A stretch of DNA of 64,000 nt, taken from IMG/VR virus record IMGVR_UViG_3300008516_000951, positions 3,930 to 67,929 of that record; one strand, 5' to 3'. Made by a program: the position numbers and the translations under genes. The notes under the pieces are model-generated. The model was not told the origin of the DNA and made no database searches. It saw only the letters and a program-made list of their open reading frames with translations. The stretch is from a virus. Below, in pieces: positions 1,400 through 62,599 of this stretch. Position 1 is the stretch's first letter, and each line of letters opens with the position of its first letter.

Positions 1400-2293
1400 A
1401 TGTCGAAACAAAAAAATGAAAATGACAACGATAATTTTGCTGAATCATTAATTCTAAATTTGGATTGTCCTGACAAACCTTCCTCCCATATTATCCCTAT
1501 CACCCTTGCGTTATATCGCTTCTATTGTCATCAAGCTAACTATCAAGAAACCTCCCGACCCAAATGTACTACTAAATTCGCTGCAAATGCACTTCACGTA
1601 TCTCAAAACAAAATCCGTCAATGCAAAAATCATCTAAGATTATTGGGCCTAATAGAAGACATAAAAATAAAGGCCGGTAACAAGATTATTGGACACTATA
1701 TTAAAGTCAATAAACACCAATCCCACCCTATACGAAGTCATACTGGTAAAAAGCAGAGTTCCCACAGTGTGGAAAGTCTTATAAAAACGCAGAGTTCCCA
1801 CAGTGTGGAAAGTCTTATAGGGTGTAATAAGTCCTATACTACGTATAGTCCTTATACTAAGAAAGATAAGTTAACTGTCGCATCGCAAGGACGCGACGAT
1901 GTGCTCTTGATTGATTTTGGTGGAAAACAACAAATAAACAATCGCCAATCCTTTGATAAAAAGTGCTGCCAAAAACTAATAGAATTACTCCAAACCAGAA
2001 GAAAGGTATTTAGAAAAATAAATTTAGCCAATTGGATAACCACATTCAAGAAGCTCAGAATTGATGACGGTATTAAAAAATCCCGGATTAAAAAAGTCTT
2101 AATTTGGTATATCAAGCACTTTGGAGAAGATTATGTACCCGAAGCATATTCCGCCAAATCTTTTAGGGATAAGTTTCTCCAAATTGAATCATCGAAAGAC
2201 CGCCAAAAATCCGAGAGAGAACGTAAAAGGTATGAGGGGGATATTTATAATGATTACGACCCGTCACTTGAGGAGGGTGAATGGAATGTCTGA
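1400..2293 (+). CDS. Putative replication initiator (N-terminal winged HTH, internal repeats)
   Basis: HTH-like segment FAANALHVSQNKIRQCKNHLRLLGLIE. Lies between primase and helicase and contains iteron-like repeats. Confidence 0.55.
   Translation: MSKQKNENDNDNFAESLILNLDCPDKPSSHIIPITLALYRFYCHQANYQETSRPKCTTKFAANALHVSQNKIRQCKNHLRLLGLIEDIKIKAGNKIIGHYIKVNKHQSHPIRSHTGKKQSSHSVESLIKTQSSHSVESLIGCNKSYTTYSPYTKKDKLTVASQGRDDVLLIDFGGKQQINNRQSFDKKCCQKLIELLQTRRKVFRKINLANWITTFKKLRIDDGIKKSRIKKVLIWYIKHFGEDYVPEAYSAKSFRDKFLQIESSKDRQKSERERKRYEGDIYNDYDPSLEEGEWNV
1753..1819. repeat. Two 31-bp direct repeats (36-bp period), iteron-like
   Basis: GCAGAGTTCCCACAGTGTGGAAAGTCTTATA at 1753-1783 and 1789-1819. Confidence 0.9.
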
Positions 2294-2438
2294 AATCGTT
2301 TCTAAGCGATTTTGGTCCGATACCCCTATAAAACTACGTATCGGCCACCAAATTCGATTTAAGGGCCATCCTCGTGCGAAATTTAGGGTGTCTATGCGAC
2401 GGTCTAACCACTTAATTGACGAAATCTTAGTAAATTGA
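2286..2438 (+). CDS. Small hypothetical protein (50 aa)
   Basis: MSEIVSKRFW... overlaps the upstream stop and the helicase start. GAGGAGGG lies upstream. Confidence 0.5.
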   Translation: MSEIVSKRFWSDTPIKLRIGHQIRFKGHPRAKFRVSMRRSNHLIDEILVN

Positions 2439-3829
2439 GAATTCAACGACGAAACAACCAGGATGAGCGACGAGTGCTGACGGGTATGATAGTGGACTCA
2501 ATAGTGTTGGGCCGGATAAGCAGTCGATGGAATGTTGGTGGGATGTTTCGGAGCCGTTGGGCTAATCTTGTCGGGGATTGGTGCGTACAGTATTATCTGC
2601 ATTACGAGAAGGCCCCGATGAGTCATATTGAAAGTCTTTTTGAAACGTGGGCTGCCGAGTCCGGCAGTGAAGATATGATTTCTTTAGTATCCAAATTCCT
2701 GTCAAGTCTTAACAGCGAATATAAGGAATTGAAAGGTAGTATAAACACAGAGTACATTATTGATTTAGCGGGACGCTATTTCAACGAAGTCAAAATAGAA
2801 GGTCTTATTGACTCGGTACAATCCGATATAGATATCGGCAAATCCGAGAAAGCCGGATTAAGTATCACTAATTTTAATCGTGTTGAATTAGGTATTGGGG
2901 AAGGGATTGACATTTTACAGGACACCGAAGCAATTAAAGAGGCACTTACTTACGAGAGAAAATCACTTATAAAATATCCGGGCGGTTTGGGGGAATTTTT
3001 TGGGGATGCTTTAGAGCGGGAGGGATTCATTACATTTCTGGGACCTGAAAAAAGAGGCAAGAGCTTTCTACTTTGGGACTTGGCATACCGGGGGATGTTG
3101 CAACGGAAGCGTGTTGCATTTTTTGAGGCAGGTGATATGTCAAAGAGGCAAGTAATGAGAAGATTTATGGCTCGTATATCACGCCATCCATTAAAACCAG
3201 GTGTTGTAAAATGGCCTGTGGGAATAGAGCGTAATGAAAAAGGGAAGGCCCTGGTAAAATATAAGAGAAAGGAATTTGAAAAGAAATTGACTTGGCGAAG
3301 GGCATTAAAAGCCTGTACTAAAACAATGAGAACCAAAATCAAGAGTAAACAAACATATTTTCGATTATTGTGGCATCCGAATTCAACGCTTAGAATATCT
3401 AACATTGAATCCATACTCCAGGATTGGGAAAGGATGAATTGGATTCCCGACGTTATTGTTATTGATTATGCGGATATATTAGATATGAGCTACCCTCATC
3501 TTGAAGGGAGAGACTGTATAAACGAAACTTGGAAACAAATGAGAAGATTGTCCCAGAAATATCATTGTCTGCTTGTCACCGCAACTCAAAGCGATTCATC
3601 TTCGTATTCGCGGAAAACAATTGATATACGAAACTTTTCTGAGGACAAACGTAAAACGGCCCACATTACAGGGATGATTGGGATAAATCAAACACCTAAA
3701 GAAAAACAAAGAGGTATTCTTCGGCTGAACTGGATTGTGTTACGGGACGGCACTTGCCCTGTATATAAGTGTGTGTATCTGGCCACCTGCTTATCATTGG
3801 CAAATCCGGCTGTTGTAAGTTATTTTTGA
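2435..3829 (+). CDS. DnaB-family replicative helicase
   Basis: Walker A GPEKRGKS, VIVIDYADIL Walker B, LVTATQ motif. Confidence 0.9.
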   Translation: MRIQRRNNQDERRVLTGMIVDSIVLGRISSRWNVGGMFRSRWANLVGDWCVQYYLHYEKAPMSHIESLFETWAAESGSEDMISLVSKFLSSLNSEYKELKGSINTEYIIDLAGRYFNEVKIEGLIDSVQSDIDIGKSEKAGLSITNFNRVELGIGEGIDILQDTEAIKEALTYERKSLIKYPGGLGEFFGDALEREGFITFLGPEKRGKSFLLWDLAYRGMLQRKRVAFFEAGDMSKRQVMRRFMARISRHPLKPGVVKWPVGIERNEKGKALVKYKRKEFEKKLTWRRALKACTKTMRTKIKSKQTYFRLLWHPNSTLRISNIESILQDWERMNWIPDVIVIDYADILDMSYPHLEGRDCINETWKQMRRLSQKYHCLLVTATQSDSSSYSRKTIDIRNFSEDKRKTAHITGMIGINQTPKEKQRGILRLNWIVLRDGTCPVYKCVYLATCLSLANPAVVSYF

Positions 3830-5297: not shown

Positions 5298-6304
5298 AAG
5301 TCAAACGAGAAGATTTCCTTAATCAATTAGAGTCCGTGCGTCCGGGATTGTCGCCCAGAGAATTAATCGAACAATCATCTTGCATCATATTTCAAAAAGG
5401 AATGGTCTACACATACAACGATGAAATATCCTGTTCACAAAAATTACTGCCTTCACTAAGAAGTATTGAAGGTGCTGTACACGCTATCCCTCTCTTGAAT
5501 CTGTTAAACAAAATGAAAGAAGATATAATTGGTGTGAGCGTGGAGAAAAGCATACTGCTGATTAAGGGCAAAAATCGCCGTGCCGGTATTCGTATGGATG
5601 AAAACATTTTGTTACCAATTGAAGCAGTTGATGAACCTAAAGAGTGGCAAAAACTGCCAAATGACTTTTCTGATGCAATAAGTTTAGTGCAATCCTGTGC
5701 CGGAACCAATGAATCGGAATTTGCAAGGACTTGCATTCATTTACACCCTGAATGGATAGAGGCGTGCAACAATTATCAAGCCGCCCGTTACACAACAAAA
5801 TTACCTTTTGAAAAATCAATACTGGCGCGTAAAGATTCATTGACTTATATCATTTCCGCAAATATGACAGATTTTAGCTCGACGGAATCCTGGATTCACT
5901 TTCGTAACAAACAAGGTCTGATTATATCGTGCCGGAAATTTGTTGAAGATTATCCTGAGATAGGTTCTATACTGGAAGTGAAGGGCAGGAATTTATCTTT
6001 ACCAAAAGGGTTGAAAGAAGCCTCGGAAAAGGCAGCAGTATTCTCCGAAGAAAATACCGACGATAACCGAGTTGCCATCAGTATAGAAACCAACAAATTG
6101 GAAATCAAAGGTACGGGTGCTTCCGGCTGGTTCAAAGAGAAAAAGCAAATAAAATACGAAGGCAAGCCACTCAAATTCACTATTGAGCCGGGATTATTGA
6201 GTCAATTGGTCCAAAAATATAATGATTGTCAAGTGGCTAAAAATCGTTTGAAAATTACTTTTGATAAATTCGAGTATATCACTGTCTTGGGAAAAATCAA
6301 TTGA
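5294..6304 (+). CDS. DNA polymerase III beta-type sliding clamp
   Basis: 336 aa. MKVKREDFLNQLESV start, EDYPEI motif and three-domain length typical of phage DnaN homologs. Confidence 0.8.
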   Translation: MKVKREDFLNQLESVRPGLSPRELIEQSSCIIFQKGMVYTYNDEISCSQKLLPSLRSIEGAVHAIPLLNLLNKMKEDIIGVSVEKSILLIKGKNRRAGIRMDENILLPIEAVDEPKEWQKLPNDFSDAISLVQSCAGTNESEFARTCIHLHPEWIEACNNYQAARYTTKLPFEKSILARKDSLTYIISANMTDFSSTESWIHFRNKQGLIISCRKFVEDYPEIGSILEVKGRNLSLPKGLKEASEKAAVFSEENTDDNRVAISIETNKLEIKGTGASGWFKEKKQIKYEGKPLKFTIEPGLLSQLVQKYNDCQVAKNRLKITFDKFEYITVLGKIN

Positions 6305-7893
6305 GATTGCCGATAAACAAAATAATCTGCTCCGACTGCGTAGAGGCTATGAGCTGTTGGCCGGACGGCTGTGTGGATATGGTGGTGACATCAATACCGT
6401 ATTGGGGGCTGCGGAGTTATTGGTGGGGTGGCGATTTAAAACTGCCCCACAAAAAACACAACAAAAATGGCAAGCCCATCCACGACTGGGCCGACCAAGA
6501 TGAGATATATCAGATATGCACTGATTGCGGGGCCTTGCGACCGCGATACGGCATCGAGCCGACGTTGGAGGAGTATATTGCCACGACGGTCGAGATATTC
6601 CGCGAAGTCCGGAAGGTCTTGAAGGACTGGGGCACGCTGTGGCTGAATGTTGGGGATGCTTATGCGACAAGCTCAACATCGGGCGAACAAGGTGTTACAG
6701 GAGATCGGGCAAACCGAAGTTTCACAGCCGAAGGAATCCCAGCGAAAATCCCTTCCGGCCTAAAACCCGGCGACCTCATCGGCCTGCCGTGGCGAGTGGC
6801 CTTTGCTCTCCAAAAAGACGGCTGGTATCTCCGCTCGGCGATAATTTGGTGCAAATCGTGGTCGTTTCACGATTGTGGTAAAAAACAAATAAAGAAAATC
6901 CGGACCGATTTATGGGGACGTAAAAGAACAAAAATAATTGATGAGGGCAATAGTTATGTCGGCTCCTGTATGCCGGAGAGTCTAAAGGACTGGTGGTGGG
7001 AGCGGTGTCGGGTGAAGGTGAAAAGTGGTTGGGGTGATATTCCGCACCCAAGTCAAACACCGGGCGGCTATTCCAGAGCGCCTAATAGTGGAGGAGTACT
7101 CAAAGCTCAAGCACAATGGCAAGACTGCCCCGGCTGCGATAAGTGCCGGGCCAACGGCGGCTACGTCCTGCGAAAGGGTTCCTGGCGACCGACGAGCGCG
7201 TACGAAATGCTATTTGAGTTTAGTAAATCCAAGACATACTATTGCGATGCAGAGGCGGTGAGAGAGGAGCTGGTGACATCGCCGGATAAATTGAGGCTAA
7301 GAGTCGAAGCAGCCAAGAAAGTAGAAGGAAGGGGGGATGCTTTAAGTATAGAAGCCTGGGGCCCAAATACTCAATCTTACAATCCTTCCGGACGCAATTT
7401 GAGAAACGTTTGGTGCATACAGACTCAGGCAACGAGCGTAAGCCATTACGCCACCTTCCCGGAGAAATTAGTAGAGCCCTGTGTAAAGGCCGGGACCAGT
7501 GAGAAGGGCAACTGCCCGAAGTGCGGGATGCCCTGGGCCAGGGTGATAGAGATAAATAAAGGCCAAAAACCCAGACAGAAGGGCGAGAAATATGATGGTA
7601 TAAACGCTGGATATGGTACACATCCCGGCGTTGGGCGAGATGATATTATAAGTAAGACCCTCGGCTGGCGACCCACTTGCACGTGCAACGCCGGAGAACC
7701 GGTCCCCGCCGTAGTCTATGACCCCTTCGCCGGGACCAATACGACAGGTTACGTCGCCAAAAAACTCAAACGGAATTGGCTCGCCACCGAAATCAACCCA
7801 AAATATATAAAGTATGCTAAGCGAAGATTACAACCACACAAGAAAAAAGGCACACTTTTCGATAAAAAAACATCCAGAAAGAGAAAAAAATGA
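6301..7893 (+). CDS. N4-C/N6-A DNA methyltransferase (beta class) with Cys-rich insertions
   Basis: DMVVTSIPYWGLR, GTLWLNVGD, IGLPWRVAFALQKDGWYLRS, HYATFPEKLV, VYDPFAGT. Confidence 0.9.
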   Translation: MRLPINKIICSDCVEAMSCWPDGCVDMVVTSIPYWGLRSYWWGGDLKLPHKKHNKNGKPIHDWADQDEIYQICTDCGALRPRYGIEPTLEEYIATTVEIFREVRKVLKDWGTLWLNVGDAYATSSTSGEQGVTGDRANRSFTAEGIPAKIPSGLKPGDLIGLPWRVAFALQKDGWYLRSAIIWCKSWSFHDCGKKQIKKIRTDLWGRKRTKIIDEGNSYVGSCMPESLKDWWWERCRVKVKSGWGDIPHPSQTPGGYSRAPNSGGVLKAQAQWQDCPGCDKCRANGGYVLRKGSWRPTSAYEMLFEFSKSKTYYCDAEAVREELVTSPDKLRLRVEAAKKVEGRGDALSIEAWGPNTQSYNPSGRNLRNVWCIQTQATSVSHYATFPEKLVEPCVKAGTSEKGNCPKCGMPWARVIEINKGQKPRQKGEKYDGINAGYGTHPGVGRDDIISKTLGWRPTCTCNAGEPVPAVVYDPFAGTNTTGYVAKKLKRNWLATEINPKYIKYAKRRLQPHKKKGTLFDKKTSRKRKK

Positions 7894-42612: not shown

Positions 42613-45462
42613 TTATTCTCCGCCCCTGGGGCCATATCGCCTCAAAGGATGATTTGTATTCATTGCTTGTTTTGTCACCGATGCAACTACGTCTCGATTC
42701 TCAGCTAACATCTGGCCAACACTTTTAGAGTCCCACGCCTTGACGTTCGTATGGTAATTATTAACTATTGTCGGGGACTCTCCTCTCTCACTATCTTTTT
42801 TCAATTGGGCCACATTACCACGAGACAATACCACCTCTCCAGTTTGAAGGATTCCAGGCCTTTCATCCGCTCCCAACCCATTATGATAACGTTTTGCATT
42901 GGCAAAAGCAGCCCCAGGAACCATACGATTCATTGCAGTCTGGCCAACCACCCCACCTTTATGATAAGCCGATGTCAGCCAAGCAGGGGTTGTTCCACCA
43001 CCTCCACCGGTAGTTGTAGTCGCCCCCGCTCCTGCACTACCCCCTCCACCCATACCACCAGCAAATAATCCACCTATCATCATCCCTACTCCAGCACCAC
43101 CACCAATCCCACCTCCAGATACTCCTCCAAGCAATCCACCTACAATGTTAGCCATTTGTGCTCGAATAATCATTTGTAATATTTCCCGATGAATTGTTTG
43201 GGCAAGTGATTTGAAATCAGCTTTCCCCGTCATTACTAAATCCGTTATAGATGATGATATTTTATCAAGGGAACTTGCTGCAATCTCACCCAAATTTTGA
43301 AAAACATTAGATGCTTCATTTTCCCATTGTTTCAACTCGACAACAAACGCAGCCGGGCCTCGACGGCCCTTGATTAGCTTGTCTAATCTTTCCTCATATC
43401 TATTTATAGCTTCAATGGATTTCTTAGAACCAATTCCATATTCTTTTTCAGCCAGCTTTCTAAACTTGATTAACTTCTCAGCACGTTCCCTTTCATCATC
43501 TATTAAACCTAATAAACGATACTCCTCATCCAGAGCACCGAGCATATCCCGCATATTTTGTTCACCCTCAGTCAACTCTTTATTCATTTCTTCAAGCACT
43601 GGAGGTATCTGTTTCAGACCCGTTACTAATGGACCTACCAATCGAGGCGACTCATAGAAAAACGAAGTGAAGTCTTGCCTAAAATCATCAAAAATACTAA
43701 TAAAAGGTCCGGCAGCTTTTTTAATGTCTTTCCAAAAATCATTAGCACGTTGTGCATCTCTTTCAGCAAGGTCGGCAAAACGCTTTCTAAATATATCGGC
43801 AAAAGCCCCGGTCCCGGAAGATAATTCTTGTTTTGCATCTTCCATTATTTGACCAAGCCGTTCCGGCAGTCCTTCAAATACATTATCTATATTCTTTCTT
43901 AATTTTTCATTTTGTATTGTTGTTTCAGCAACACCCCACTTAATCGGGTCAACCCACATTTGTTTAATAGCAGGAGTCATTGAAATCAAACCACGCTGTT
44001 CGGGCATAGGAATAGAAATACGTTTACCCGCTGTAAGACCTATTTCACCACCCAACCTTTTATAGGCATCCAATATCTCTTGCTTGCCTGCTTTATCAGG
44101 CATCAAACTCTCTTTCAAAGCAACCCAAATACCCTTACCAACTCTCAAAACCATATCAATAAGCACTTTTGCATAGGCTTTTATAAGAACAATTGACAAA
44201 TTAAAAAACCCCGCCAAGGCAGCAGGTAAATCATCCTTAATTAACAAAACAAAATCTTTGAATACATCCATCACAAATATAACCCTATCCGCTATTTTTT
44301 CAGCCCATTGCGTAACCAACCATTGATTCTCTTCAAACCATTTCGTCATCTTTAGTAATTCAGGGGCCAGTCTCTCTCCTATTGATATGGCCACAACTTT
44401 GATTTGATTCCAACACTTTTTCATTTGAGCACTAAAAGATTTCAAGTTCGCCTCTGCCAACCTTTTGGCGGTTTCACTCATTTTGGCTAATTTTTCCTCA
44501 AATTCCGCCACTGCATCCCCCATTCCTAATAGGGGAAAAATAGCCTGCTGAGAACGGGCTTGAAATCCCAATAAATCCAAAGCCCTCGCTCTCACAGTAA
44601 CACCCATCCCTTCCAATGCCTTAGTTAAGTCTTTCCCTATATCGGAAAAAGCCCTCATATTATCTTCGGCATCTACTATTGAAACCCCAAGTTTTTTCCA
44701 TTCAACCTCATTATCAACAAATGCCTTAACTGTTAATCTCACCATTCGAGAGAAAAATTCACCACCAACCGCTCCCTTTTTAGAACTTTTAGCATACGCC
44801 GCCAACGCAGCAGTACCCCCTTCAATACTTATACCATATTGTTTCATAAGAGGGCCGGAAATTTGAAGAGCTTCGGCAAATTGCTCCGTTGTAGCGTTGG
44901 CCAAAGTATTCGCCCCAACAAGAATATCAGTCACCTTAGTCAGATTTTTCAAATGTATTTCAGTATCCTGGGATTCCAAACCCAAAGCAGCTTGCGCATC
45001 AACAGCCAATGTAGTGGCCTTAGCTAAATCAAAACTCCCAGCAACGGCAAGTGTATTTACAACATCCAAAGCCTTAATAGATTGAGCCGCATTTAATCCC
45101 GCAGAACCTAAGTAAAAATAACCCTTAGCCAAATCAGTGGCTGAAATAACACTTTCTGTTGACATCTGGAGAGCGGTTTTTCTCATCTCCTCTCTCATCT
45201 CATCTGATACATCCGCAAAGATAGCAAGAGATTTAACCATAGCATCGTCAAAAGATGCGAACGCCTTGACTGATGCTGCCGCAATCCCAGCACCGGCAAT
45301 GGCCAATCTCCTTCCATATTTCATTAAGACAGCATTATGCTTACTTATAAGATTTACAGTCCCTTTGAGAGTTCTTGACACTCTGCCCATCGTGGCCTGA
45401 AACTGAGAGGCGTCGGCCCTAAGATGCACCAATAAATTACCAATGTTCATACCAAATGCCAT
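42613..45462 (-). CDS. Tape measure protein (TP901 family)
   Basis: 949 aa helical, FDDAM, GYFYLGSAG, C-terminal YHKGGVVG...ILQTGEVVL. Confidence 0.92.
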   Translation of the reverse strand: MAFGMNIGNLLVHLRADASQFQATMGRVSRTLKGTVNLISKHNAVLMKYGRRLAIAGAGIAAASVKAFASFDDAMVKSLAIFADVSDEMREEMRKTALQMSTESVISATDLAKGYFYLGSAGLNAAQSIKALDVVNTLAVAGSFDLAKATTLAVDAQAALGLESQDTEIHLKNLTKVTDILVGANTLANATTEQFAEALQISGPLMKQYGISIEGGTAALAAYAKSSKKGAVGGEFFSRMVRLTVKAFVDNEVEWKKLGVSIVDAEDNMRAFSDIGKDLTKALEGMGVTVRARALDLLGFQARSQQAIFPLLGMGDAVAEFEEKLAKMSETAKRLAEANLKSFSAQMKKCWNQIKVVAISIGERLAPELLKMTKWFEENQWLVTQWAEKIADRVIFVMDVFKDFVLLIKDDLPAALAGFFNLSIVLIKAYAKVLIDMVLRVGKGIWVALKESLMPDKAGKQEILDAYKRLGGEIGLTAGKRISIPMPEQRGLISMTPAIKQMWVDPIKWGVAETTIQNEKLRKNIDNVFEGLPERLGQIMEDAKQELSSGTGAFADIFRKRFADLAERDAQRANDFWKDIKKAAGPFISIFDDFRQDFTSFFYESPRLVGPLVTGLKQIPPVLEEMNKELTEGEQNMRDMLGALDEEYRLLGLIDDERERAEKLIKFRKLAEKEYGIGSKKSIEAINRYEERLDKLIKGRRGPAAFVVELKQWENEASNVFQNLGEIAASSLDKISSSITDLVMTGKADFKSLAQTIHREILQMIIRAQMANIVGGLLGGVSGGGIGGGAGVGMMIGGLFAGGMGGGGSAGAGATTTTGGGGGTTPAWLTSAYHKGGVVGQTAMNRMVPGAAFANAKRYHNGLGADERPGILQTGEVVLSRGNVAQLKKDSERGESPTIVNNYHTNVKAWDSKSVGQMLAENRDVVASVTKQAMNTNHPLRRYGPRGGE

Positions 45463-53740: not shown

Positions 53741-54796
53741 TCAAACAGAAGCGTGGCCAATTCCGGTCGAACCGTTTTGGTCGGCCCTCATTTGGGGAAC
53801 CATAATGTTCATAACTTTGAAGTTGACTTGAAGGCCGCCGAATGAATCCCACTGAACCGTAGTGGTATTCATACCGATTACTTCGCGTACAACATCAGCA
53901 GTCATTTGAACCATCAGAATATCATAATTCTGCAACCAATCCGATGTATTCAAACTTACAAAATCCCCAACAGAAAGAATACGTTCACGAAGTGTAGTAG
54001 CCAAAGCAGTCTTGAAGTCTTCATCAAGATACGTGTCCCAACTTGGAGCGTTGTACAGCAACCACGGGCCGTGGTAATGAATGTTTTTCATCTGCTGACG
54101 CAAACCTAACAATTCAGTTATCAATGTGCTACCAGTCCAGCCAGCAGCCGCCGGAGAAGTGAAAGTCGCTGTTCTACGCGCCGGATAGTTGGTGTAGCCA
54201 TAAATAGTGCCACCACCATATACATAAGTAGATAGCCTGCCCAATAACATCTGTTCATTACTTTCAGCCACTTTGCGGGCAGCCAGTTCGGCCATCGTTG
54301 TATCAAGCGGTGAATTACCACTACGAGAAATAGCAATCTGCCGAGCCGAAAACATAAAATCCTTATGAGTTATTGGCAACGGTAAATTTGTCAACTCATA
54401 AACGGGACGGTCATTAGGATTATCCCTTAATCCGTCCATACTGATAGAGGCATCGTTAATGTCACTTTGCGTTTCAGTTTGGAACACTGATTTTCCCATT
54501 CCATTAGGAATGCTATAAGTCAATCCCTTCCCCAAAAGGTCGGCCACGGCACGTAATCTTTCACGAGCTACTTTAAGAACAGCTTCGTCCAAATGTATCC
54601 AGTCGTCCTTACGCAACGTCGCTGTAGCATTAGCCGCCAAAGGCACAGCTTTGGGTTTGCTATACCTATCGTTTTGGGTGATATAACTTTTCCCATCTTT
54701 CCCAATATAGGGCCGCAAAGCATTAACATTAAAATTAGAGGCCAACAACTTACTTGCAACATCGCCACTGGCCTGACCGTTCATAATAAAATCCAT
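53741..54796 (-). CDS. Major capsid protein (HK97 fold, linocin/DUF2184-like)
   Basis: LPITHKDF..SAR, AARKVAE..EQM, YGYTNYP. Follows the decoration and scaffold genes. Confidence 0.88.
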   Translation of the reverse strand: MDFIMNGQASGDVASKLLASNFNVNALRPYIGKDGKSYITQNDRYSKPKAVPLAANATATLRKDDWIHLDEAVLKVARERLRAVADLLGKGLTYSIPNGMGKSVFQTETQSDINDASISMDGLRDNPNDRPVYELTNLPLPITHKDFMFSARQIAISRSGNSPLDTTMAELAARKVAESNEQMLLGRLSTYVYGGGTIYGYTNYPARRTATFTSPAAAGWTGSTLITELLGLRQQMKNIHYHGPWLLYNAPSWDTYLDEDFKTALATTLRERILSVGDFVSLNTSDWLQNYDILMVQMTADVVREVIGMNTTTVQWDSFGGLQVNFKVMNIMVPQMRADQNGSTGIGHASV

Positions 54797-54860
54797 TGTA
54801 AATCCTTTCAAACAAACAAAAACAATTCACTTAACTTCACTTCTTTCCTCGAAAGCAAAA

Positions 54861-55356: not shown

Positions 55357-56907
55357 TTAGGAATCTTCTTTTGCCCCAACAAAATCATTCACTGTCGGAG
55401 CAAGCAAAGGCTCCTCTATATACCCATCACGATTAACCACCGGAGCTTGCCCACCATAATTAGGCAAGTTCGTTACCAACTCATCATTATCTTCCTCAGC
55501 CAATACTGCAATTTGTCGAAGCTCTTCCAAATCCTTTTCCATTAACTGCTCTTTGGTAAATGTATTCTTTTCATTAGCAGTAATTTTTTCAATGACATTC
55601 GCCACATCAGCTTCATAAGATTTGATGCCGTTAATAAGCACCCTTTGTATTTTCAGAGGAAACGTCGTAATACATTCTTGTAATGTAGTAGGCTTCTTCT
55701 CCTCAATATTGGTTTCCACTTTGCTTTCAATATCCACTTGTTTGTCTGTCCTTTTTTCCTCTACCTTTTCCTCGGTAGCAGTCTCATCAATTACTACCTT
55801 TTCCTCGGTTTCATTGACGATGGGGACCATCTTTTCCAAGTCGCCCTTATCTATCTTCATTAGTTTCTCACGGTCTTTTTCATCCCAATGAGTAGTCTCG
55901 TTGGTAATAAGACCATCTACAATCACTTTCTTATCCATTTCAATTTCCTTTCTATTAACCATTTCAATTGTTCCACTAAAATTAGCCACAAACGTCCCGT
56001 CTTTCGTACGATACTCTACTACACGAATAACCTCTTGAGGACCATCAGCAAATTCCACACCGCCTTCCTTGATAACATATAATTGCTTAAACAAAGCACC
56101 GTCATTTTCATAAATGAAGAAATCATCATATACACTTTCAACATACGCATCTTCCAACTTGTCTCGCAAAAGGCTGCTCAGCAAGTTACTCGTTTCACCA
56201 AAACTCATATCCACATTCAATCTCAAAAACCCCGCCCCATCCTCTACCGAGCAAGCACCTTTCAAATCTGGCAATAAAGCCAAATGGTCCGGCCTAAAGT
56301 TTCTTGCAATAGCTTGATAAGTTTTACCATTGAATTCCCCCTCTTGACTCTCGTTATCGGTAAATAACCCGGTGGACAATTCCATAATCTTGTTATTCTC
56401 CACCGCTTCCATAATACGGTCATCCACTGCATTCATTCTATTTATTTCCATCCAAGCCTCTGCTTTCAACTTACCATCCTCAAAAGTGGTGTTCATTATC
56501 ACACCAATTTTCCGATTGGTCAGAATATCCGGGTCGCACGCACTTATCGGCTGGCCATTGTATTTGGGATGATAAACAATGACAGGTTTTGCATTCCAAA
56601 CAACCGGAGTTTTAGCCATCTCATCAGCCGGGTACAATATAGGGCCCCCACTGCCATCCAATACCCCTTCCACCATCATAATCATAGGGGCAACCAAATA
56701 ATCTCTACCCTCCATCGAATCGTGTCGAACATTTCCTGTGAAATTAGCTGTGAGTTTCAACATTTGATTCTCCTTATAACCAGATGCCTTAATAGCAGCC
56801 CCCTGCTTTGCCGCCTTAGCCTTAGCACCTTCACCTATATAGCATTTACCACTCTTGCCCCACTTCCATCCTTCCTTACCATCTTTTATACATCTTTGTA
56901 CTGGCAT
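55357..56907 (-). CDS. Prohead protease/scaffold (DUF2213-like)
   Basis: PVIVYHP, ELSTG, PDHLALLP..GACS, acidic C-terminal scaffold region. Confidence 0.85.
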   Translation of the reverse strand: MPVQRCIKDGKEGWKWGKSGKCYIGEGAKAKAAKQGAAIKASGYKENQMLKLTANFTGNVRHDSMEGRDYLVAPMIMMVEGVLDGSGGPILYPADEMAKTPVVWNAKPVIVYHPKYNGQPISACDPDILTNRKIGVIMNTTFEDGKLKAEAWMEINRMNAVDDRIMEAVENNKIMELSTGLFTDNESQEGEFNGKTYQAIARNFRPDHLALLPDLKGACSVEDGAGFLRLNVDMSFGETSNLLSSLLRDKLEDAYVESVYDDFFIYENDGALFKQLYVIKEGGVEFADGPQEVIRVVEYRTKDGTFVANFSGTIEMVNRKEIEMDKKVIVDGLITNETTHWDEKDREKLMKIDKGDLEKMVPIVNETEEKVVIDETATEEKVEEKRTDKQVDIESKVETNIEEKKPTTLQECITTFPLKIQRVLINGIKSYEADVANVIEKITANEKNTFTKEQLMEKDLEELRQIAVLAEEDNDELVTNLPNYGGQAPVVNRDGYIEEPLLAPTVNDFVGAKEDS

Positions 56908-57084: not shown

Positions 57085-57147
57085 AATAAAAAAGGCTTAC
57101 CAGCTATAAAAATCAGAAGATGCAAATCAAGAAAGCTGGTAAGCCTT
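57085..57147 (-). terminator. Intrinsic terminator-like hairpin
   Basis: AAGGCTTACCAGCT/AGCTGGTAAGCCTT 14-bp stem with a T-tract on the - strand. Confidence 0.65.
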
Positions 57148-57437
57148 CACTTTGGAGGAGATGTGCCGAAAAAGTTGGGGGCACATCAAGTGCTCGCATT
57201 GAGGAGGAGGAGTAGATGGGGAATAACAAAACACTCAATGGCCCCCGAACCAACCTATTTCTTCAATTGTATGATAGCAGGTTGGGAAGGGGGAAACGCT
57301 GACAAAACCTTCCCAACCAAGAAGACATCCTTGTCTTTACATCCCGGCACGTGAGAACATCAGCAAAGCACATCGCCGGGCGTCCTTGAGTCCCAACGGA
57401 ACACATCAGGAGAATCCCATTTCTCAAGCGTTCCACC

Positions 57438-57470
57438 TATATTATCAAATTAACTCAGTGCTTCCTGCCA
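57438..57470 (-). promoter_or_regulatory. Conserved phage promoter-like motif, copy 3
   Basis: Reverse complement reads TGGCAGGAAGCACTGAGTTAATTTGATAATATA. Confidence 0.7.
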
Positions 57471-57475
57471 AAAAT

Positions 57476-59356
57476 TTATAATAATTCTTTTCCCGCCCAC
57501 ACACTACGCCTTTCTATTTCTCGATAAGAACGTTTGATAGTTTTGGGACCTTCGGACTTTATACTCTTTTTCACGGCTGTTTTACCACGCTTCCCCCACA
57601 ATTGACCTTTCTGTTTCATATTCTTTTCCGCAGGCATCCAACTGCAACGACAATTATGGCTTGCAACATTATTAGCAATATAATATGATTCAGTAGTTTC
57701 TAAATTATAGATATACCCCAAATAATGAAAGGCTTTACAATGAACAATAGAAGCATTCACAAAACGAGTATCATTACAAAGACGTCTTGCAATTTTCTTA
57801 TCCCGTTGTCTATCAAAAAAATTGCAAAACTTTACAAACAAGGAATGTCTGAAAATGCTCTTTCCAAACAATTTAATGTAAGCCGCAGTACTATACGAAA
57901 TCGCCTTTTGTCCACCAATATTCATATCAGAACCCAAAGTGAAGCGGAAACGATAAAATGGGCTAATATGAATCTGATTGCAAGAGCCAATCAAGTTAGA
58001 GCCGCACATAAAGCAAGAATCGGACAACAAGTGTCGTGGACAACCAAATGCAAACGCGCCAAGACTATTGAGAAACATCCGCCTAATAATTCGCCATACG
58101 AAATCAAACTTGCGAAAATGCTGTTGAAAAGAGGGATTAAAACTATTCCCCAAAAAGCAATTGGAGGATATAACTGCGACCTTGCTGCCTATCCCGTCGC
58201 CGTGGAAGTCTTTGCTGGAAAGTGGCATTGGTACGGAAATCACATCGCTATTACTGAGAAACGATTCCGCTATATCCTCAATTCTGGATGGTTTATCTAT
58301 GTCGTTGCAATCAACAATTCTTTCCCTCTCACTGATGCTGTTGCACATCACCTCGCTTCCTATATCCAAAGTATTCGCAGGGACAAACCCATCAGATGTC
58401 AATATCGGGTGGTTTGGGGTGCAAACGAATTTATCACCAAAGGAAGTCTTAAAGACAAACATATCTCCATCATACCACCGTTTACTAACACCCGTGATTC
58501 CACCACCGGGCGTTACAAGCGAATCAGGAGGTAAGCAATTCGGATGTCGAGGAATTAAACCACGTGCCTCCTTAACTGTCATCACCACACCCTCTAAATC
58601 CCCACACAAAGGGCACACCCTATCATCCCCAACCGTACTCCACTCGGCCATTACCGTTATCTCTTTCACACCCAAATGTTCAAACGCATCCAATTGTCCT
58701 TCGGCGTGGGCGTGTATGATTTCAGTGCGGGCCAAGGTTAAAGCCCTGGTGTTAGTAATTTTAGTAACGTTGTTTCTCAACTCTCGTGCTATCTTTCTTG
58801 GACTATAACCCTTAACCAAACCCTCACTTAATATCCGGGACATTTGCTGACTCATCGATGATGTAACACCTTTCAATTCTTCAAACGTACGGGTGCTCAG
58901 TAATTCGATTTTATTCAACAATTCCGGGGCGTCAAATGCAGTCCGTAGAAATTCAGCCTTACCACCCAAGAAAAACTCATCACCTTCCATAGCCAACTCA
59001 GCAGCACGTAAATCAGTGTAAGCCCTCAACCCACCTTTGCGATAAGCTGATTCAACATAAGTGCCTGTCCAAGGTTTTCCTGTTATAGCATCAGTAGTCA
59101 ATATCTTGGCGTCAATTTGTTGCTGGAGCCATTTCTGATATGCCTGGGCCTTTTGGGCAGATGTATTGAAACGCCAAGCCTGCCTCTCCTGCAAAATGGC
59201 CAATTCCTTTCGCTCCTCCAATCCAAAGACATCGTCGGTTACTATCAACGTTTGGATAGCTTTGGATACACTTTTGAATCGGCGTTTCATATCGGCACAG
59301 AATTTACGCCGAAGCAAGGTGGTCCTCGTCGGGTCACGTTTGAGTTGGTTAGGCAT
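57476..59356 (-). CDS. MuF / SPP1 gp7-like head morphogenesis protein, intein-containing
   Basis: DPTRT, RALTLARTE, WSTVGDDRVCPLC, IPRHPN[intein]CRCSW. Confidence 0.92.
   Translation of the reverse strand: MPNQLKRDPTRTTLLRRKFCADMKRRFKSVSKAIQTLIVTDDVFGLEERKELAILQERQAWRFNTSAQKAQAYQKWLQQQIDAKILTTDAITGKPWTGTYVESAYRKGGLRAYTDLRAAELAMEGDEFFLGGKAEFLRTAFDAPELLNKIELLSTRTFEELKGVTSSMSQQMSRILSEGLVKGYSPRKIARELRNNVTKITNTRALTLARTEIIHAHAEGQLDAFEHLGVKEITVMAEWSTVGDDRVCPLCGDLEGVVMTVKEARGLIPRHPNCLPPDSLVTPGGGITGVSKRWYDGDMFVFKTSFGDKFVCTPNHPILTSDGFVPANTLDIGSEVMCNSISERERIVDCNDIDKPSRIEDIAESFLSNSDVISVPMPLSSKDFHGDGIGSKVAVISSNCFLGNSFNPSFQQHFRKFDFVWRIIRRMFLNSLGAFAFGCPRHLLSDSCFMCGSNLIGSCNQIHISPFYRFRFTLGSDMNIGGQKAISYSTAAYIKLFGKSIFRHSLFVKFCNFFDRQRDKKIARRLCNDTRFVNASIVHCKAFHYLGYIYNLETTESYYIANNVASHNCRCSWMPAEKNMKQKGQLWGKRGKTAVKKSIKSEGPKTIKRSYREIERRSVWAGKELL
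57661..57689 (+). promoter_or_regulatory. Sigma70-like promoter inside the intein, antisense to it
   Basis: TTGCAA-17 nt-TATGAT, about 50 nt upstream of RBS GAAAGG (57727-57732) and ATG 57740. Confidence 0.6.
57740..58534 (+). CDS. HTH + DUF559/Vsr-like endonuclease encoded antisense within the intein
   Basis: LYKQGMSENALSKQFNVSRSTIRNRL (HTH), then NSPYEIKLAKML..RGI...Q..IGGYNCDLA...VAVEV..GKWH...GW. Confidence 0.8.
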   Translation: MNNRSIHKTSIITKTSCNFLIPLSIKKIAKLYKQGMSENALSKQFNVSRSTIRNRLLSTNIHIRTQSEAETIKWANMNLIARANQVRAAHKARIGQQVSWTTKCKRAKTIEKHPPNNSPYEIKLAKMLLKRGIKTIPQKAIGGYNCDLAAYPVAVEVFAGKWHWYGNHIAITEKRFRYILNSGWFIYVVAINNSFPLTDAVAHHLASYIQSIRRDKPIRCQYRVVWGANEFITKGSLKDKHISIIPPFTNTRDSTTGRYKRIRR

Positions 59357-59529: not shown

Positions 59530-61080
59530 TTATTCTTGCCCTAATACTTCAGCAGCCAACCGGGCAGATTCAGATTTCTTAATTGCATCACTTTTTATAG
59601 CCACGTCACTTTCCCTGGCTTTCAATTCCGCTTCACGTTCTTCATCCTGCTCTTTCTGCAATCTCATAGCAGCCTCCTCTATCTGTTTAGCTTCTTCCAA
59701 TTCCATCCCCAATATCATAGTCAAATACTCCAAAGGCGGAATCAAGGTATCCACACCACCACCCACATATTTAGCCATTGCTTCACTTAGTGTCTTCGCA
59801 ATCTCAGCAGTTTCTTTTTCTCCCGGCACATTCAAATCAGGCCATTCTACAAAATACTCTGCAGGTTCCGGTAATATACCAAACATAATCAGCCTGTCAA
59901 CAAATACACGAATCACCATAGGCGTCAAATATCCCTCTTGTCTTTTCTTAATTCGCATATTCCAACGCTTAGTGTCCTGGTCTGCCGCTAATCGGGATTC
60001 CTCTGTCCCTACAAACACACGATATGGCGCACCCAAACTCACAGCAATATATTTCATCTGGGCCTCTATATGACCTTTGGGGTCTGCTACCTGTGGGGAA
60101 AGACTTTTAGCAGTAACACCGGATATAGCTATATATCTTTCAAGCCCATTTGCATAATTTTGAAACGTTTCTCGCAAGCTGTCTGCATCAAGAGTTGCAC
60201 CTTCATTACCGGGAGTCACTTCAAACGAATATCCTGGAAACGCCCCTTTCCAAAACATCTCACCACTACCACTTACCACCTTACGAACATCCAACAATCT
60301 ATTATATACGTGCTGCATTCTCGGAGTGCCATATATCTCAGAGGTATCCCTATTGTCGGCAACGTGAATCAGTCGAGTCCAATGCACCGTTTTCGTTTGG
60401 GAAATTGTTTCAGTCGAAGCCAAATCCTCAAACACAATATTATAAGTTTCAGGATAGCCATATCGAGGCGAATGTATGTCATTCACAACTCGTCTAATCG
60501 TTATATTACTTTCATCAAAAACTCTAACATACAACAATTTATGAGTGGCGTCGCCTACCTTTTCACCCGTACTCACATCAATTCCTTCTACAGGCTCTAT
60601 CAATTCCTTCCCATCATCCAATCCTAATAATATCACACCAAAACTCCCTATACCACTAAGCACATCCACCCTCTGTAAAAAATGGTATATGTTCATATCT
60701 TTGTTTAACTGTTGCCACATCTTTTCAAACTCTGTTTCCGACGGGTCTTCTGTCTCGTAAATCTTAGGCAATTTAGCCCAACTTTCATCCGGCATCAAAC
60801 TAACTACCTTTGTACCCAACCCCTCTCTATCATACATTGCCTTGTAATCATTTATCGTAATCGAATCAGGATACCCACAGGCATAGTTAATATCCTTACC
60901 CGGATTCAATAATCTCTGCAATACCTCTCGCCGAAATGTTGAAGCATTTAACCTCATTATAGATTCTGCCTGCTGCATCTGAAATGCGACCCGCTTTTCT
61001 TCATTTGAAACATATTTATTTCCCTCTTGAATTTTCTCAAATTTGGCTTTCTGTCTTTCCTGTGTAGTTTCATTAGCCAT
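59530..61080 (-). CDS. Portal protein (DUF1073-like)
   Basis: CGYP, SPRYGYPETY, VHWTRLIH. Lies between terminase and MuF. Confidence 0.88.
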   Translation of the reverse strand: MANETTQERQKAKFEKIQEGNKYVSNEEKRVAFQMQQAESIMRLNASTFRREVLQRLLNPGKDINYACGYPDSITINDYKAMYDREGLGTKVVSLMPDESWAKLPKIYETEDPSETEFEKMWQQLNKDMNIYHFLQRVDVLSGIGSFGVILLGLDDGKELIEPVEGIDVSTGEKVGDATHKLLYVRVFDESNITIRRVVNDIHSPRYGYPETYNIVFEDLASTETISQTKTVHWTRLIHVADNRDTSEIYGTPRMQHVYNRLLDVRKVVSGSGEMFWKGAFPGYSFEVTPGNEGATLDADSLRETFQNYANGLERYIAISGVTAKSLSPQVADPKGHIEAQMKYIAVSLGAPYRVFVGTEESRLAADQDTKRWNMRIKKRQEGYLTPMVIRVFVDRLIMFGILPEPAEYFVEWPDLNVPGEKETAEIAKTLSEAMAKYVGGGVDTLIPPLEYLTMILGMELEEAKQIEEAAMRLQKEQDEEREAELKARESDVAIKSDAIKKSESARLAAEVLGQE

Positions 61081-61081
61081 A

Positions 61082-62599
61082 TTATTTTCCTTTCTTTCTG
61101 ACAGGGAAAAATCCACCTACTATCCTCTTTCTTTCGGACAACCTGTTAAAAGCACCCGAAGCAGCATCCACCTGGTCTTTATATTTAGAGAATGGAAAGA
61201 ACCTAAGCTCCTCCAAAAAAGCATTATTCCATTCCGCTTGAATCATACTCACATTACCGGCATTCACCTGGACGCTGAAAGGGTCTGCTCTCAATATCTT
61301 AGAGCCGGTTGAACCGGATGGCTTATCAATAAACACACTCCAACCAGCTAAACTTTTGATTGTGTTTTCTGCCGATTCCTTACCACCCGAACCTGGCTCC
61401 TGCTCAATCCCTATAATCACTTTGTAACCATCCACCATAGCAGTTTGTTTGATTATCTGTTCTCTTATTTCGCTACTCCATCGACCTCTCACTATATCCA
61501 AAATCCAATATCTCCCATCCCGATGTTTCTTCATCAACAAACCCACACTATAAGCACCCCCATCAGCAGTACCGGCCTTGTCCCAAAATCTCACTTCTCC
61601 CAACCATTTATTAATAGGCGTATCTATCACAATTCTTTCAACTTTAATCATTCCACCGCCAAGTGGCACAGGGTCTTGCAAAAATTGACCTGCATAGAAA
61701 AAATCACCACCTGTTTTCTTTTCATTAATTACACTCCATCCCAAACGTATCGGGTCCATCAGATTATCTTTGTAATAACGGCGTAATTTACGTGGTCTGA
61801 TTTTAGGTGTTTTTTCTGCCGGTAGGCAAATATGCCTCAATCTCAAAGGTGCTTCCTTTTCACCGTTATCAATTGCAATTTGCTGGGCGTATTTTATCCT
61901 CTCAATCATATTATTAGTGGGGTCGTCCTGATGTAATCTCTGCATAATCAAAATTGTAGGTGTTTTAGCCTGGTCAACTTTTCTTTGTGAGAGAGTTCCG
62001 GTCATCCAGTCGTTTGTCGCTTTCAATTCTACTTCGCTCACGGCGCGATTCGGGTCGATTGGGTCATCCACTATAATAAAATGTCCGTGAAAGCCTGTGA
62101 TAGTTCCACCTGTAGATGTGGCGTATCTCCATCCGCCTTTTGTATTCATAAAGAAACTTTTGCCAAATTGGTCTGCTCTCAATTGTATATTGCCGAAGGA
62201 AGCCCTGTATTTATCCGACAATATCACATCTCGATTCTTTCGACTCAAATCCATACTCAATTCTTTGTTATAACTACCACCAATAATCTGGGCCGGAGAC
62301 ATTCTTGTCCATACCCAGGCCGGAAACATTATCGAACAAATTGTACTCTTGGTGGAGCCCGGAGATATATTGATTATCAAATCGTATTCTTTCGGCAAAT
62401 CAAGGAAAACACGCTCAGCAACCTTCTGTAGCTCGTTACAGAGATATTTAATATGCCAATTCCATACCGGAGCTTCCTCGATAATCACGCTCCAAAATTC
62501 CCGCACAAATTCATAGAAACACTCTTTTGTCACGCTCCTGATTAAATCAGTCTCGTCAAAACTAATATCAGACAAAGTATTTACACTATGATTTGTCAT
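61082..62599 (-). CDS. terL: Terminase large subunit
   Basis: WNWH, NISPGSTKS, IIVDDP, IMQRLH, WDKA, EQEPGSGG, KDQVDA. Confidence 0.95.
   Translation of the reverse strand: MTNHSVNTLSDISFDETDLIRSVTKECFYEFVREFWSVIIEEAPVWNWHIKYLCNELQKVAERVFLDLPKEYDLIINISPGSTKSTICSIMFPAWVWTRMSPAQIIGGSYNKELSMDLSRKNRDVILSDKYRASFGNIQLRADQFGKSFFMNTKGGWRYATSTGGTITGFHGHFIIVDDPIDPNRAVSEVELKATNDWMTGTLSQRKVDQAKTPTILIMQRLHQDDPTNNMIERIKYAQQIAIDNGEKEAPLRLRHICLPAEKTPKIRPRKLRRYYKDNLMDPIRLGWSVINEKKTGGDFFYAGQFLQDPVPLGGGMIKVERIVIDTPINKWLGEVRFWDKAGTADGGAYSVGLLMKKHRDGRYWILDIVRGRWSSEIREQIIKQTAMVDGYKVIIGIEQEPGSGGKESAENTIKSLAGWSVFIDKPSGSTGSKILRADPFSVQVNAGNVSMIQAEWNNAFLEELRFFPFSKYKDQVDAASGAFNRLSERKRIVGGFFPVRKKGK

Follow-up and report, generated by a model that had tools for sequence, protein, structure and literature searches.

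An intein in a phage head gene raises the question of where its homing endonuclease is encoded. The intein considered here interrupts the MuF gene of IMG/VR virus record IMGVR_UViG_3300008516_000951, within a stretch of 64,000 nucleotides hereafter called the window. By its PHROG matches the 64-kb window is a segment of a tailed-phage genome with 42% GC. The MuF gene, an SPP1 gp7-like head morphogenesis gene, occupies 57476..59356 on the minus strand and encodes a precursor of 626 amino acids (aa), intein included. It was recognized from its open reading frame (ORF), from a Pfam Phage_Mu_F match (E 5.5e-11, aa 174-274) and from PHROG matches to head morphogenesis families. We conclude, with a probability of about 85%, that the MuF gene carries a mobile intein whose putative homing endonuclease is encoded by an independent antisense gene that shares the codon register of the intein. 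The anatomy of the locus and the pattern of selection carry most of the weight.

Two reading frames across the MuF intein

The N-extein (MuF aa 1-273; 58538..59356, minus strand) ends in RHPN. The C-extein (57476..57652, minus strand; 58 aa plus stop) begins with CRCSWMPAEKN and matches the C-terminus of intein-less relatives, in which RHPNCRC is uninterrupted. The extein codons RHPN/CRCSW agree with the intein-less junction proposed in an initial annotation of the window. The intein between them comprises 295 aa (MuF aa 274-568; 57653..58537, minus strand) and was defined by its splicing motifs and Hint fold. It has the nucleophile of a class 1 intein (C274 of the precursor, Cys1 of the intein) and block B (T40-P-N-H43). 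Block F reads YNLET, and the intein ends in YNLETTESYYIANNVASHN/C, that is, a terminal HN followed by C+1. Residues C1, T40, H43, N278, T281, and N295 were invariant in an alignment of 47 intein sequences (A2).

On the plus strand an ORF runs through 57725..58534, stop included. It would give a protein of 269 aa from the ATG at 57725 or of 264 aa from the ATG at 57740, which is codon M6 and the position at which most aligned homologues begin. The putative homing-endonuclease gene is placed at 57740..58534. The two strands share one codon register, with intein aa i lying opposite plus aa 272-i. The nuclease ORF ends in TAA (58532-58534), which complements the TTA (Leu) of intein codon 2. The predicted product starts with a resolvase/transposase-type helix-turn-helix (HTH; plus aa 25-67, 57797..57925), followed by a helical, basic linker (aa 68-120, 57926..58084), a Vsr/EDxHD-like nuclease domain (aa 121-241, 58085..58447), and a C-terminal beta tail (aa 242-269 and TAA, 58448..58534), the last opposite intein blocks A to B. 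In the sense direction, the N-terminal splicing lobe of the Hint domain (intein aa 1-105; 58223..58537, minus strand) faces plus aa 167-271, and the C-terminal splicing lobe with blocks F and G (aa 250-295; 57653..57790, minus strand) faces the disordered plus aa 1-22. Between the lobes lies a stop-free sense linker (aa 106-249; 57791..58222, minus strand). All coordinates given in the initial annotation proved correct on re-checking; its description of an antisense ORF in the same register, ending on the complement of intein codon 2 opposite blocks A to B, likewise stood.

Either strand stays open opposite the other only if the coding strand avoids TTA, CTA, and TCA. Together these make up 3.9% of the 13,980 codons in the 36 long ORFs of the window, where TTA or CTA serves about one third of Leu codons and TCA 19% of Ser codons. 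None of the three occurs in either frame of the overlap. When one protein was held fixed and synonymous codons were drawn from the genome's own usage, the probability of an open minus frame given the plus protein was 5.3e-5, and that of an open plus frame given the minus protein was 4.4e-6. Chance is thus excluded as the cause of both open frames in the window.

Selection and fold on the two strands

Selection on both frames was estimated as dN/dS (Nei-Gojobori) from 79 unique sequences, using the 151 of 3081 pairs with a nucleotide distance of 0.03-0.40; these pairs are not independent, the values are descriptive and not tests, and the alignment was built on the plus protein, which might slightly favor the plus frame. 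Two intein-less loci, L008 and L065, were left out of this set, as were eight exact duplicates (87 reduced to 79). Over plus aa 30-120 dN/dS was 0.25 in the plus frame and 0.96 in the minus frame, and over aa 121-166 it was 0.25 and 0.88, respectively. The values were 0.31 and 0.74 over aa 167-222, and 0.54 and 0.47 over aa 223-269. An extein control, consisting of the 110 codons before the intein, gave 1.10 in the plus and 0.36 in the minus frame; it covers 129 of the 151 pairs, as 72 of the 79 sequences had 110 extein codons, and its boundary is a few codons off in about 13 loci where the plus stop is not at intein codon 2.

A separate comparison of codon positions between the window and its closest intein-bearing relative, L009, was aligned on the minus protein (plus protein identity 64%). 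In the exteins, sense position 3 was the most variable, with differences in 0.59 of N-extein codons and 0.69 of C-extein codons. Within the middle of the intein this switched to sense position 1 (0.39-0.50 vs. 0.21-0.25 at position 3), in agreement with the dN/dS pattern. These comparisons indicate that, in the middle, the sense frame is under selection for openness alone and the antisense frame for its protein product, and that near intein blocks A to B both frames are constrained.

The plus protein had 40 homologues in the protein collection, 33 of which were aligned (A1). Residues G40, R69, E126, Y149, N150, D152, and E161 were invariant in this alignment and H168 was at least 90% conserved. 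AlphaFold2 (AF2), run with the alignment, gave a model with a mean pLDDT of 88 and disorder limited to residues 1-24. Helices 71-81, 84-98, and 105-117 in the linker had a pLDDT above 90, and strands 253-257 and 264-268 in the tail had about 85-88. Fold comparison of this model found a Vsr-type alpha/beta nuclease fold for the protein; no solved structure was matched by the linker (aa 68-120). Pfam HTH_7 matched above its cut-off (E 1.5e-5). The label DUF559 in the initial annotation is not borne out at sequence level, as Pfam gave no DUF559 match on the plus protein and just a weak one to MTES_1575 (E 0.055). A single-sequence search against PDB sequences returned weak HTH matches only; the alignment profile retrieved 3r3p by sequence (E 0.005). 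In that profile alignment E126 and E161 stand opposite Glu and D152 opposite Ala, so that any residue-level equivalence to EDxHD is tentative. The number of HTH copies varies in the family: three members of A1 (P0020, P0024, and P0022; 354-464 aa) have one or two extra N-terminal HTH repeats.

The sense intein was modeled by AF2 with 47 homologues. The model was confident over aa 1-105 (pLDDT 87-95 for the blocks in aa 1-70 and 89 for aa 81-100) and over aa 250-295 (83-97). The linker between was of low confidence, with pLDDT below 50 at aa 130-136 and 164-236, and no Pfam domain matched the sense middle. The top Foldseek rows for the intein model were mini-inteins (RecA, NpuDnaB, and RadA; 5i0a, 2in9, 4o1r, and 4e2t), with a probability of 0.97-1.0 and E of 9e-3 to 3e-2. 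We therefore describe MuF as one continuous precursor ORF in which, according to sequence and model, the Hint lobes are split by a linker of about 140 residues without amino-acid selection. What the initial annotation had said of the two products, namely that the splicing blocks (C1, TPNH, YNLET, and HN/C+1) are intact, that the sense middle shows no LAGLIDADG or HNH motif, and that the antisense ORF encodes an HTH joined to a Vsr-like nuclease, agrees with the Hint fold of the model, the disorder over aa 164-236, and the folds and purifying selection (plus-frame dN/dS 0.25-0.31) found for the plus protein.

These data can be set against the reverse assignment, in which the plus ORF would be the shadow of a conserved sense protein, with the sense middle a true novel endonuclease and the antisense strand open by codon bias. 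Same-register antisense frames are the ones most often open by chance, notably in GC-rich DNA, and many related loci exceed 60% GC. The genome considered here has 42% GC, however, and the probability of an open plus frame in it was 4.4e-6. Moreover, dN/dS in the middle was 0.88-0.96 in the sense and 0.25 in the antisense frame, and the sense middle is predicted to be unfolded, whereas the antisense protein is modeled as an HTH plus Vsr protein with a pLDDT of 88 and has an HTH_7 match above cut-off. One motif of the middle, DFHGDG, is invariant in the sense frame; this is because it is the complement of the plus beta strand PVAVEV, which bears the putative catalytic Glu161. On fold, dN/dS, and the chance calculation we count this assignment as refuted, and give it almost no weight.

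With the plus-strand nuclease as the selected protein of the middle, the region where both frames are constrained deserves separate attention. Here some 75-100 codons, at least 58223..58447, may encode two folded domains, the Hint N-lobe on one strand and the last alpha-beta-alpha part of the nuclease plus beta strands on the other. To this reading would be added interlocked translation signals, the stop at Leu2 (64 of 79 loci) and GAGG over block F (37 of 79). The overlap would then be more than a nuclease gene lodged in a linker that the intein can spare. We put this reading forward tentatively, at slightly under even odds.

Relatives, expression signals, and mobility

The plus protein was matched by tblastn in 127 phage records at 25-38% identity. 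The recorded hosts include Salmonella (62), Pseudomonas (15), and Gordonia (14), and also Klebsiella, Escherichia, Vibrio, Aggregatibacter, and Idiomarinaceae. The annotated feature under the matches was a head morphogenesis, minor capsid, or MuF gene, and the match was antisense to the annotated MuF/head coding sequence in seven of the eight records inspected. Among actinobacteriophages, matches antisense to MuF-like minor capsid genes were found in Gordonia phages Vivi2 (34% identity, E 4e-23), Fosterous, Affeca, and Angelicage (33-34% for the four, E 4e-23 to 9e-22), and the minor capsid gene of Rhodococcus phage REQ3 had an antisense match with E 2e-5. Judged by these similarities, the actinobacteriophage cases and many proteobacterial-phage cases are one homologous family.

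Existing annotations almost never show the nuclease gene. That of Escherichia phage Snoke marks the intein and not the plus ORF, and just one of the eight inspected records, Salmonella phage PK2, annotates the plus ORF inside the intein-bearing MuF gene, as "hypothetical." Extra "hypothetical protein" features lie under the match in PK2, PK1, and vB_StyS-sam, of which PK2 is the one inspected. In ZCSE7 and NBSal007 the MuF gene is called "NAD+--asparagine ADP-ribosyltransferase."

A relative of the plus protein is encoded in 209 IMG/VR stretches, and 80 of those loci were taken. The same-register minus frame had no stop anywhere along the match at 86 of 88 loci, the exceptions being L008 (Acinetobacter phage BUCT629) and L065 (an IMG/VR contig). 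At 64 of the 79 unique loci the plus ORF terminates opposite Leu2 of an intein that begins with "CL," its stop being the complement of that codon; of the remaining ORFs, two reach the end of the contig and 13 terminate within a few codons of this position. The open frame reaches an [HSQ]N/C end in 63 of the 64 Leu2-stop loci, which gives inteins of 217-377 aa (median 277). The initial annotation had proposed to ask whether, in homologous MuF inteins, the antisense frame stays open with dN/dS below 1 while the sense middle drifts; both frames were open in 86 of 88 loci, and dN/dS in the middle was 0.25 antisense and about 0.9 sense. A search with the intein region retrieved 264 proteins (E <=1e-3), mostly MuF or portal-MuF fusions and a few with other exteins, and PF14890 (Intein_splicing) is present in the precomputed annotation of most intein homologues. 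The same intein, middle included, occurs in portal-MuF fusions among P0047, P0050, P0057, P0059, P0107, and P0148. A few exteins have other Pfam domains (PF00644/PF18760 in P0059 and PF01695 in P0148).

The open minus frame also bears on whether MuF is one gene at all. It might be broken into two pieces that are joined by a trans-splicing split intein, with the nuclease gene between them and the openness of the minus frame irrelevant. Vsr-like endonuclease genes between the halves of split inteins are known (Dassa et al., 2009, PMC2677866), and the sense middle holds no selected protein information. Against this, the minus frame is stop-free through the middle in those 86 loci (P 5.3e-5 in the window), which would be expected only if ribosomes have to translate across the middle. 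No start codon with a ribosome-binding site is evident for a separate C-terminal piece, and the known fractured genes, as far as the available text of PMC2677866 describes them, keep their three ORFs on one strand. A broken MuF gene is thus very improbable, and we retain the continuous precursor.

In both exceptions, BUCT629 and L065, the C(K/R)C motif of MuF is uninterrupted and the homologue of the nuclease stands alone, in a gene that converges on MuF and overlaps the latter at the 3' end (gene pair at 1818..2753, plus, and 2747..3523, minus, in BUCT629; 2300..3166, plus, in L065). In the free-standing nuclease of BUCT629, 13 of 312 codons would be antisense stops, and L065 has five such stops. 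With no surrounding intein nothing holds the antisense frame open, and BUCT629 is therefore a natural control for the openness argument. The presence of free-standing relatives beside the intein site fits a nuclease that would target this part of MuF.

Signals for translation of the nuclease were found at several loci. In the window a Shine-Dalgarno-like GAAAGG (57727..57732, plus) lies 7 nt before the ATG at 57740, as the initial annotation had noted; L009, L010, and L016, all close relatives, have it as well, and GAAAGGG precedes the ATG of the MuF gene itself. In 37 of the 79 unique sequences GAGGT[TC] lies 4-14 nt before an in-frame nuclease start. Read on the other strand, this motif gives the Asn-Leu-Glu codons of intein block F, so one conserved splicing motif doubles as the putative ribosome-binding site of the other gene. 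The window's own subfamily has GAAAGG, further downstream, instead of GAGGT[TC].

The promoter-like TTGCAA-17-TATGAT (57661..57689, plus), with 9 of 12 consensus matches, lies within DNA that encodes intein block G. The hexamers are found at the equivalent place in L014, L015, L018, and L019, where the DNA also encodes conserved block G. A promoter-like site was found within 200 nt before the start region in 19 of 36 low-GC relatives, vs. a background of 0.18 per 200 nt; we do not count this as promoter evidence, since the loci are related and the DNA encodes the AT-rich, Tyr/Asn/Ile-rich blocks F/G.

The closest relatives of the N-extein are proteins of 326-340 aa with 67-74% identity that have no intein and an intact RHPNCRC; the spliced MuF is expected to have 331 aa (626 minus 295). 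The N-extein of L009 is just 57% identical to that of the window. Exteins other than MuF suggest, on sequence grounds, that the element has changed its host gene. We propose the following course of events. The intein would splice out of the MuF precursor to leave the 331-aa MuF with HPN and CRC rejoined, while the nuclease would be translated from its own start at ATG 57740 with GAAAGG. In a mixed infection the nuclease would cut intein-less MuF alleles near the site encoding HPNCRC, and repair would copy intein and nuclease gene together.

The plus ORF could also be a real gene that no longer serves homing, being domesticated or decaying or having another use such as competitor exclusion or regulation, with the intein inherited vertically. 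The nuclease activity that we assume is read from sequence and model, most of the VSR-like intein groups treated in a recent preprint (bioRxiv 10.1101/2025.01.02.630785) look vertically inherited according to its available text, and the free-standing homologues beside intein-less MuF genes mean that the nuclease can exist without an intein. In contrast, a plus-frame dN/dS of 0.25-0.31 and the invariance of E126, D152, and E161 in 33 sequences argue against decay. The closest exteins lack the intein; the element occurs in non-MuF exteins, which fits movement; and cutting competitors at the empty site would be the same first step as homing. We regard loss of homing as unlikely and continue to prefer a mobile element.

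Several observations nevertheless weigh against a mobile intein with an antisense nuclease, in addition to the limits of the dN/dS values given above. The match of PF14890 to the MuF precursor (E 9.3e-5, 22.7 bits) is below the cut-off of 35.8. Foldseek E-values were modest, near 2e-3 for the nuclease and near 1e-2 for the intein, and couplings that stem from the antisense protein may have inflated the AF2 confidence at sense residues 81-104. Promoter-like sites are not above chance, with three in 1.8 kb compared to 4.1 ± 2.1 in shuffles; the TTGCAA-17-TATGAT site of the initial annotation is thus present at 57661-57689, but its reading as a promoter is not upheld at this chance-level number of sites. 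The early, host sigma-70-driven expression of the nuclease, uncoupled from the late extein, that the initial annotation proposed is accordingly conjectural. Finally, the sporadic presence of the intein fits gain by homing and equally loss.

The MuF ORF is flanked by the portal gene (59530..61116, minus) and a protease-like gene (55357..56907, minus). Further PHROG matches identified the terminase large subunit (61082..62599, minus), a capsid-like gene (53741..54811, minus), the tape measure gene (42613..45462, minus), and a replication module on the plus strand with helicase, family A polymerase, and methyltransferase. A non-coding gap of about 480 nt separates MuF from the protease-like gene, and a hairpin-plus-T-run terminator-like site (57131..57148, minus; 57090..57150) is located downstream of MuF. 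This site would also stop plus-strand transcripts from further upstream, in which case the nuclease transcript must start within about 57150-57740. A DNA methyltransferase gene (6301..7893, plus; 530 aa) matches Pfam N6_N4_Mtase with 183 profile positions over residues 25-403, in two stretches. The spread of this match indicates a large insertion; the gene had no intein family match and no antisense ORF of at least 230 aa.

Significance and comparison with known systems

The layout of an intein with an antisense endonuclease is not new; so far it has been documented solely in a preprint. The preprint of Gosselin, Arsenault and Gogarten (bioRxiv 10.1101/2025.01.02.630785, version 2025-10-20), in its available text, describes full inteins in minor capsid genes of actinobacteriophages with VSR-like endonucleases encoded anti-sense; the sense "endonuclease region" of these inteins is unstructured. 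Like those inteins, the one described here is a continuous ORF with the endonuclease ORF antisense inside it. Unlike the cases in that text, it belongs to a phage with 42% GC that is not an actinobacteriophage, and the sequencing runs under which the stretch is listed carry the label marine sediment, with no RNA run among them. Here, as in the 64 of 79 loci, the nuclease ORF extends as far as intein codon 2, with the Vsr-like fold (to plus aa 241) overlapping the N-terminal splicing lobe; to the extent of the preprint text available, this position of the nuclease fold is an under-described feature.

The window thus adds a member from a non-actinobacterial phage, and the layout reported in 2025 for actinobacteriophages belongs to one sequence family spread over phages of many bacterial phyla and metagenomes. 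The locus further provides a measure of how selection differs between the strands, acting on protein sequence in one and solely on freedom from stops in the other, and in one stretch both seem to code for folded protein. If this two-strand coding of folded domains is true, intein and nuclease would be an obligately co-evolving unit of ancient standing and a natural test case for the limits of coding structured proteins on both strands. A practical consequence is that the nuclease gene escapes annotation pipelines, and editing of MuF in phage engineering would unknowingly edit the nuclease. If the enzyme is active, the conserved HPN/CRC target might be put to use for marker exclusion when phages are crossed in laboratory strains.

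Three other systems are close in part. The "fractured genes" of Dassa et al. (2009, PMC2677866) are split inteins with a free-standing Vsr-like gene between the halves, all on one strand, and the available text of that paper contains no antisense case. They resemble the present locus in having a Vsr-like gene inside a phage-gene intein, as a separate ORF with its own translation signals. In fractured genes, however, the host gene is in two ORFs on one strand, whereas MuF is a single 626-aa ORF and its endonuclease is antisense and codon-registered. I-Bth0305I, an EDxHD enzyme (PDB 3R3P), is an intron-encoded homing endonuclease of Bacillus phage 0305phi8-36, as given in the available text of Taylor et al. 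(2011, PMC3239194). It belongs to a group I intron and not to an intein, and the nuclease described here has about 13% identity to it and a different DNA-binding N-terminal region.

The canonical LAGLIDADG and HNH inteins share with the MuF intein the combination of a Hint splicing domain and an endonuclease that spreads the intein. In canonical inteins the nuclease is within the same polypeptide, whereas here it is a separate antisense gene. Anti-sense LAGLIDADG inteins have reportedly been described as well, in work that the preprint attributes to Gorbalenya (1998) and Gogarten et al. (2002). The MuF intein resembles these in having its endonuclease on the opposite strand; the nuclease family differs, being Vsr-like here.

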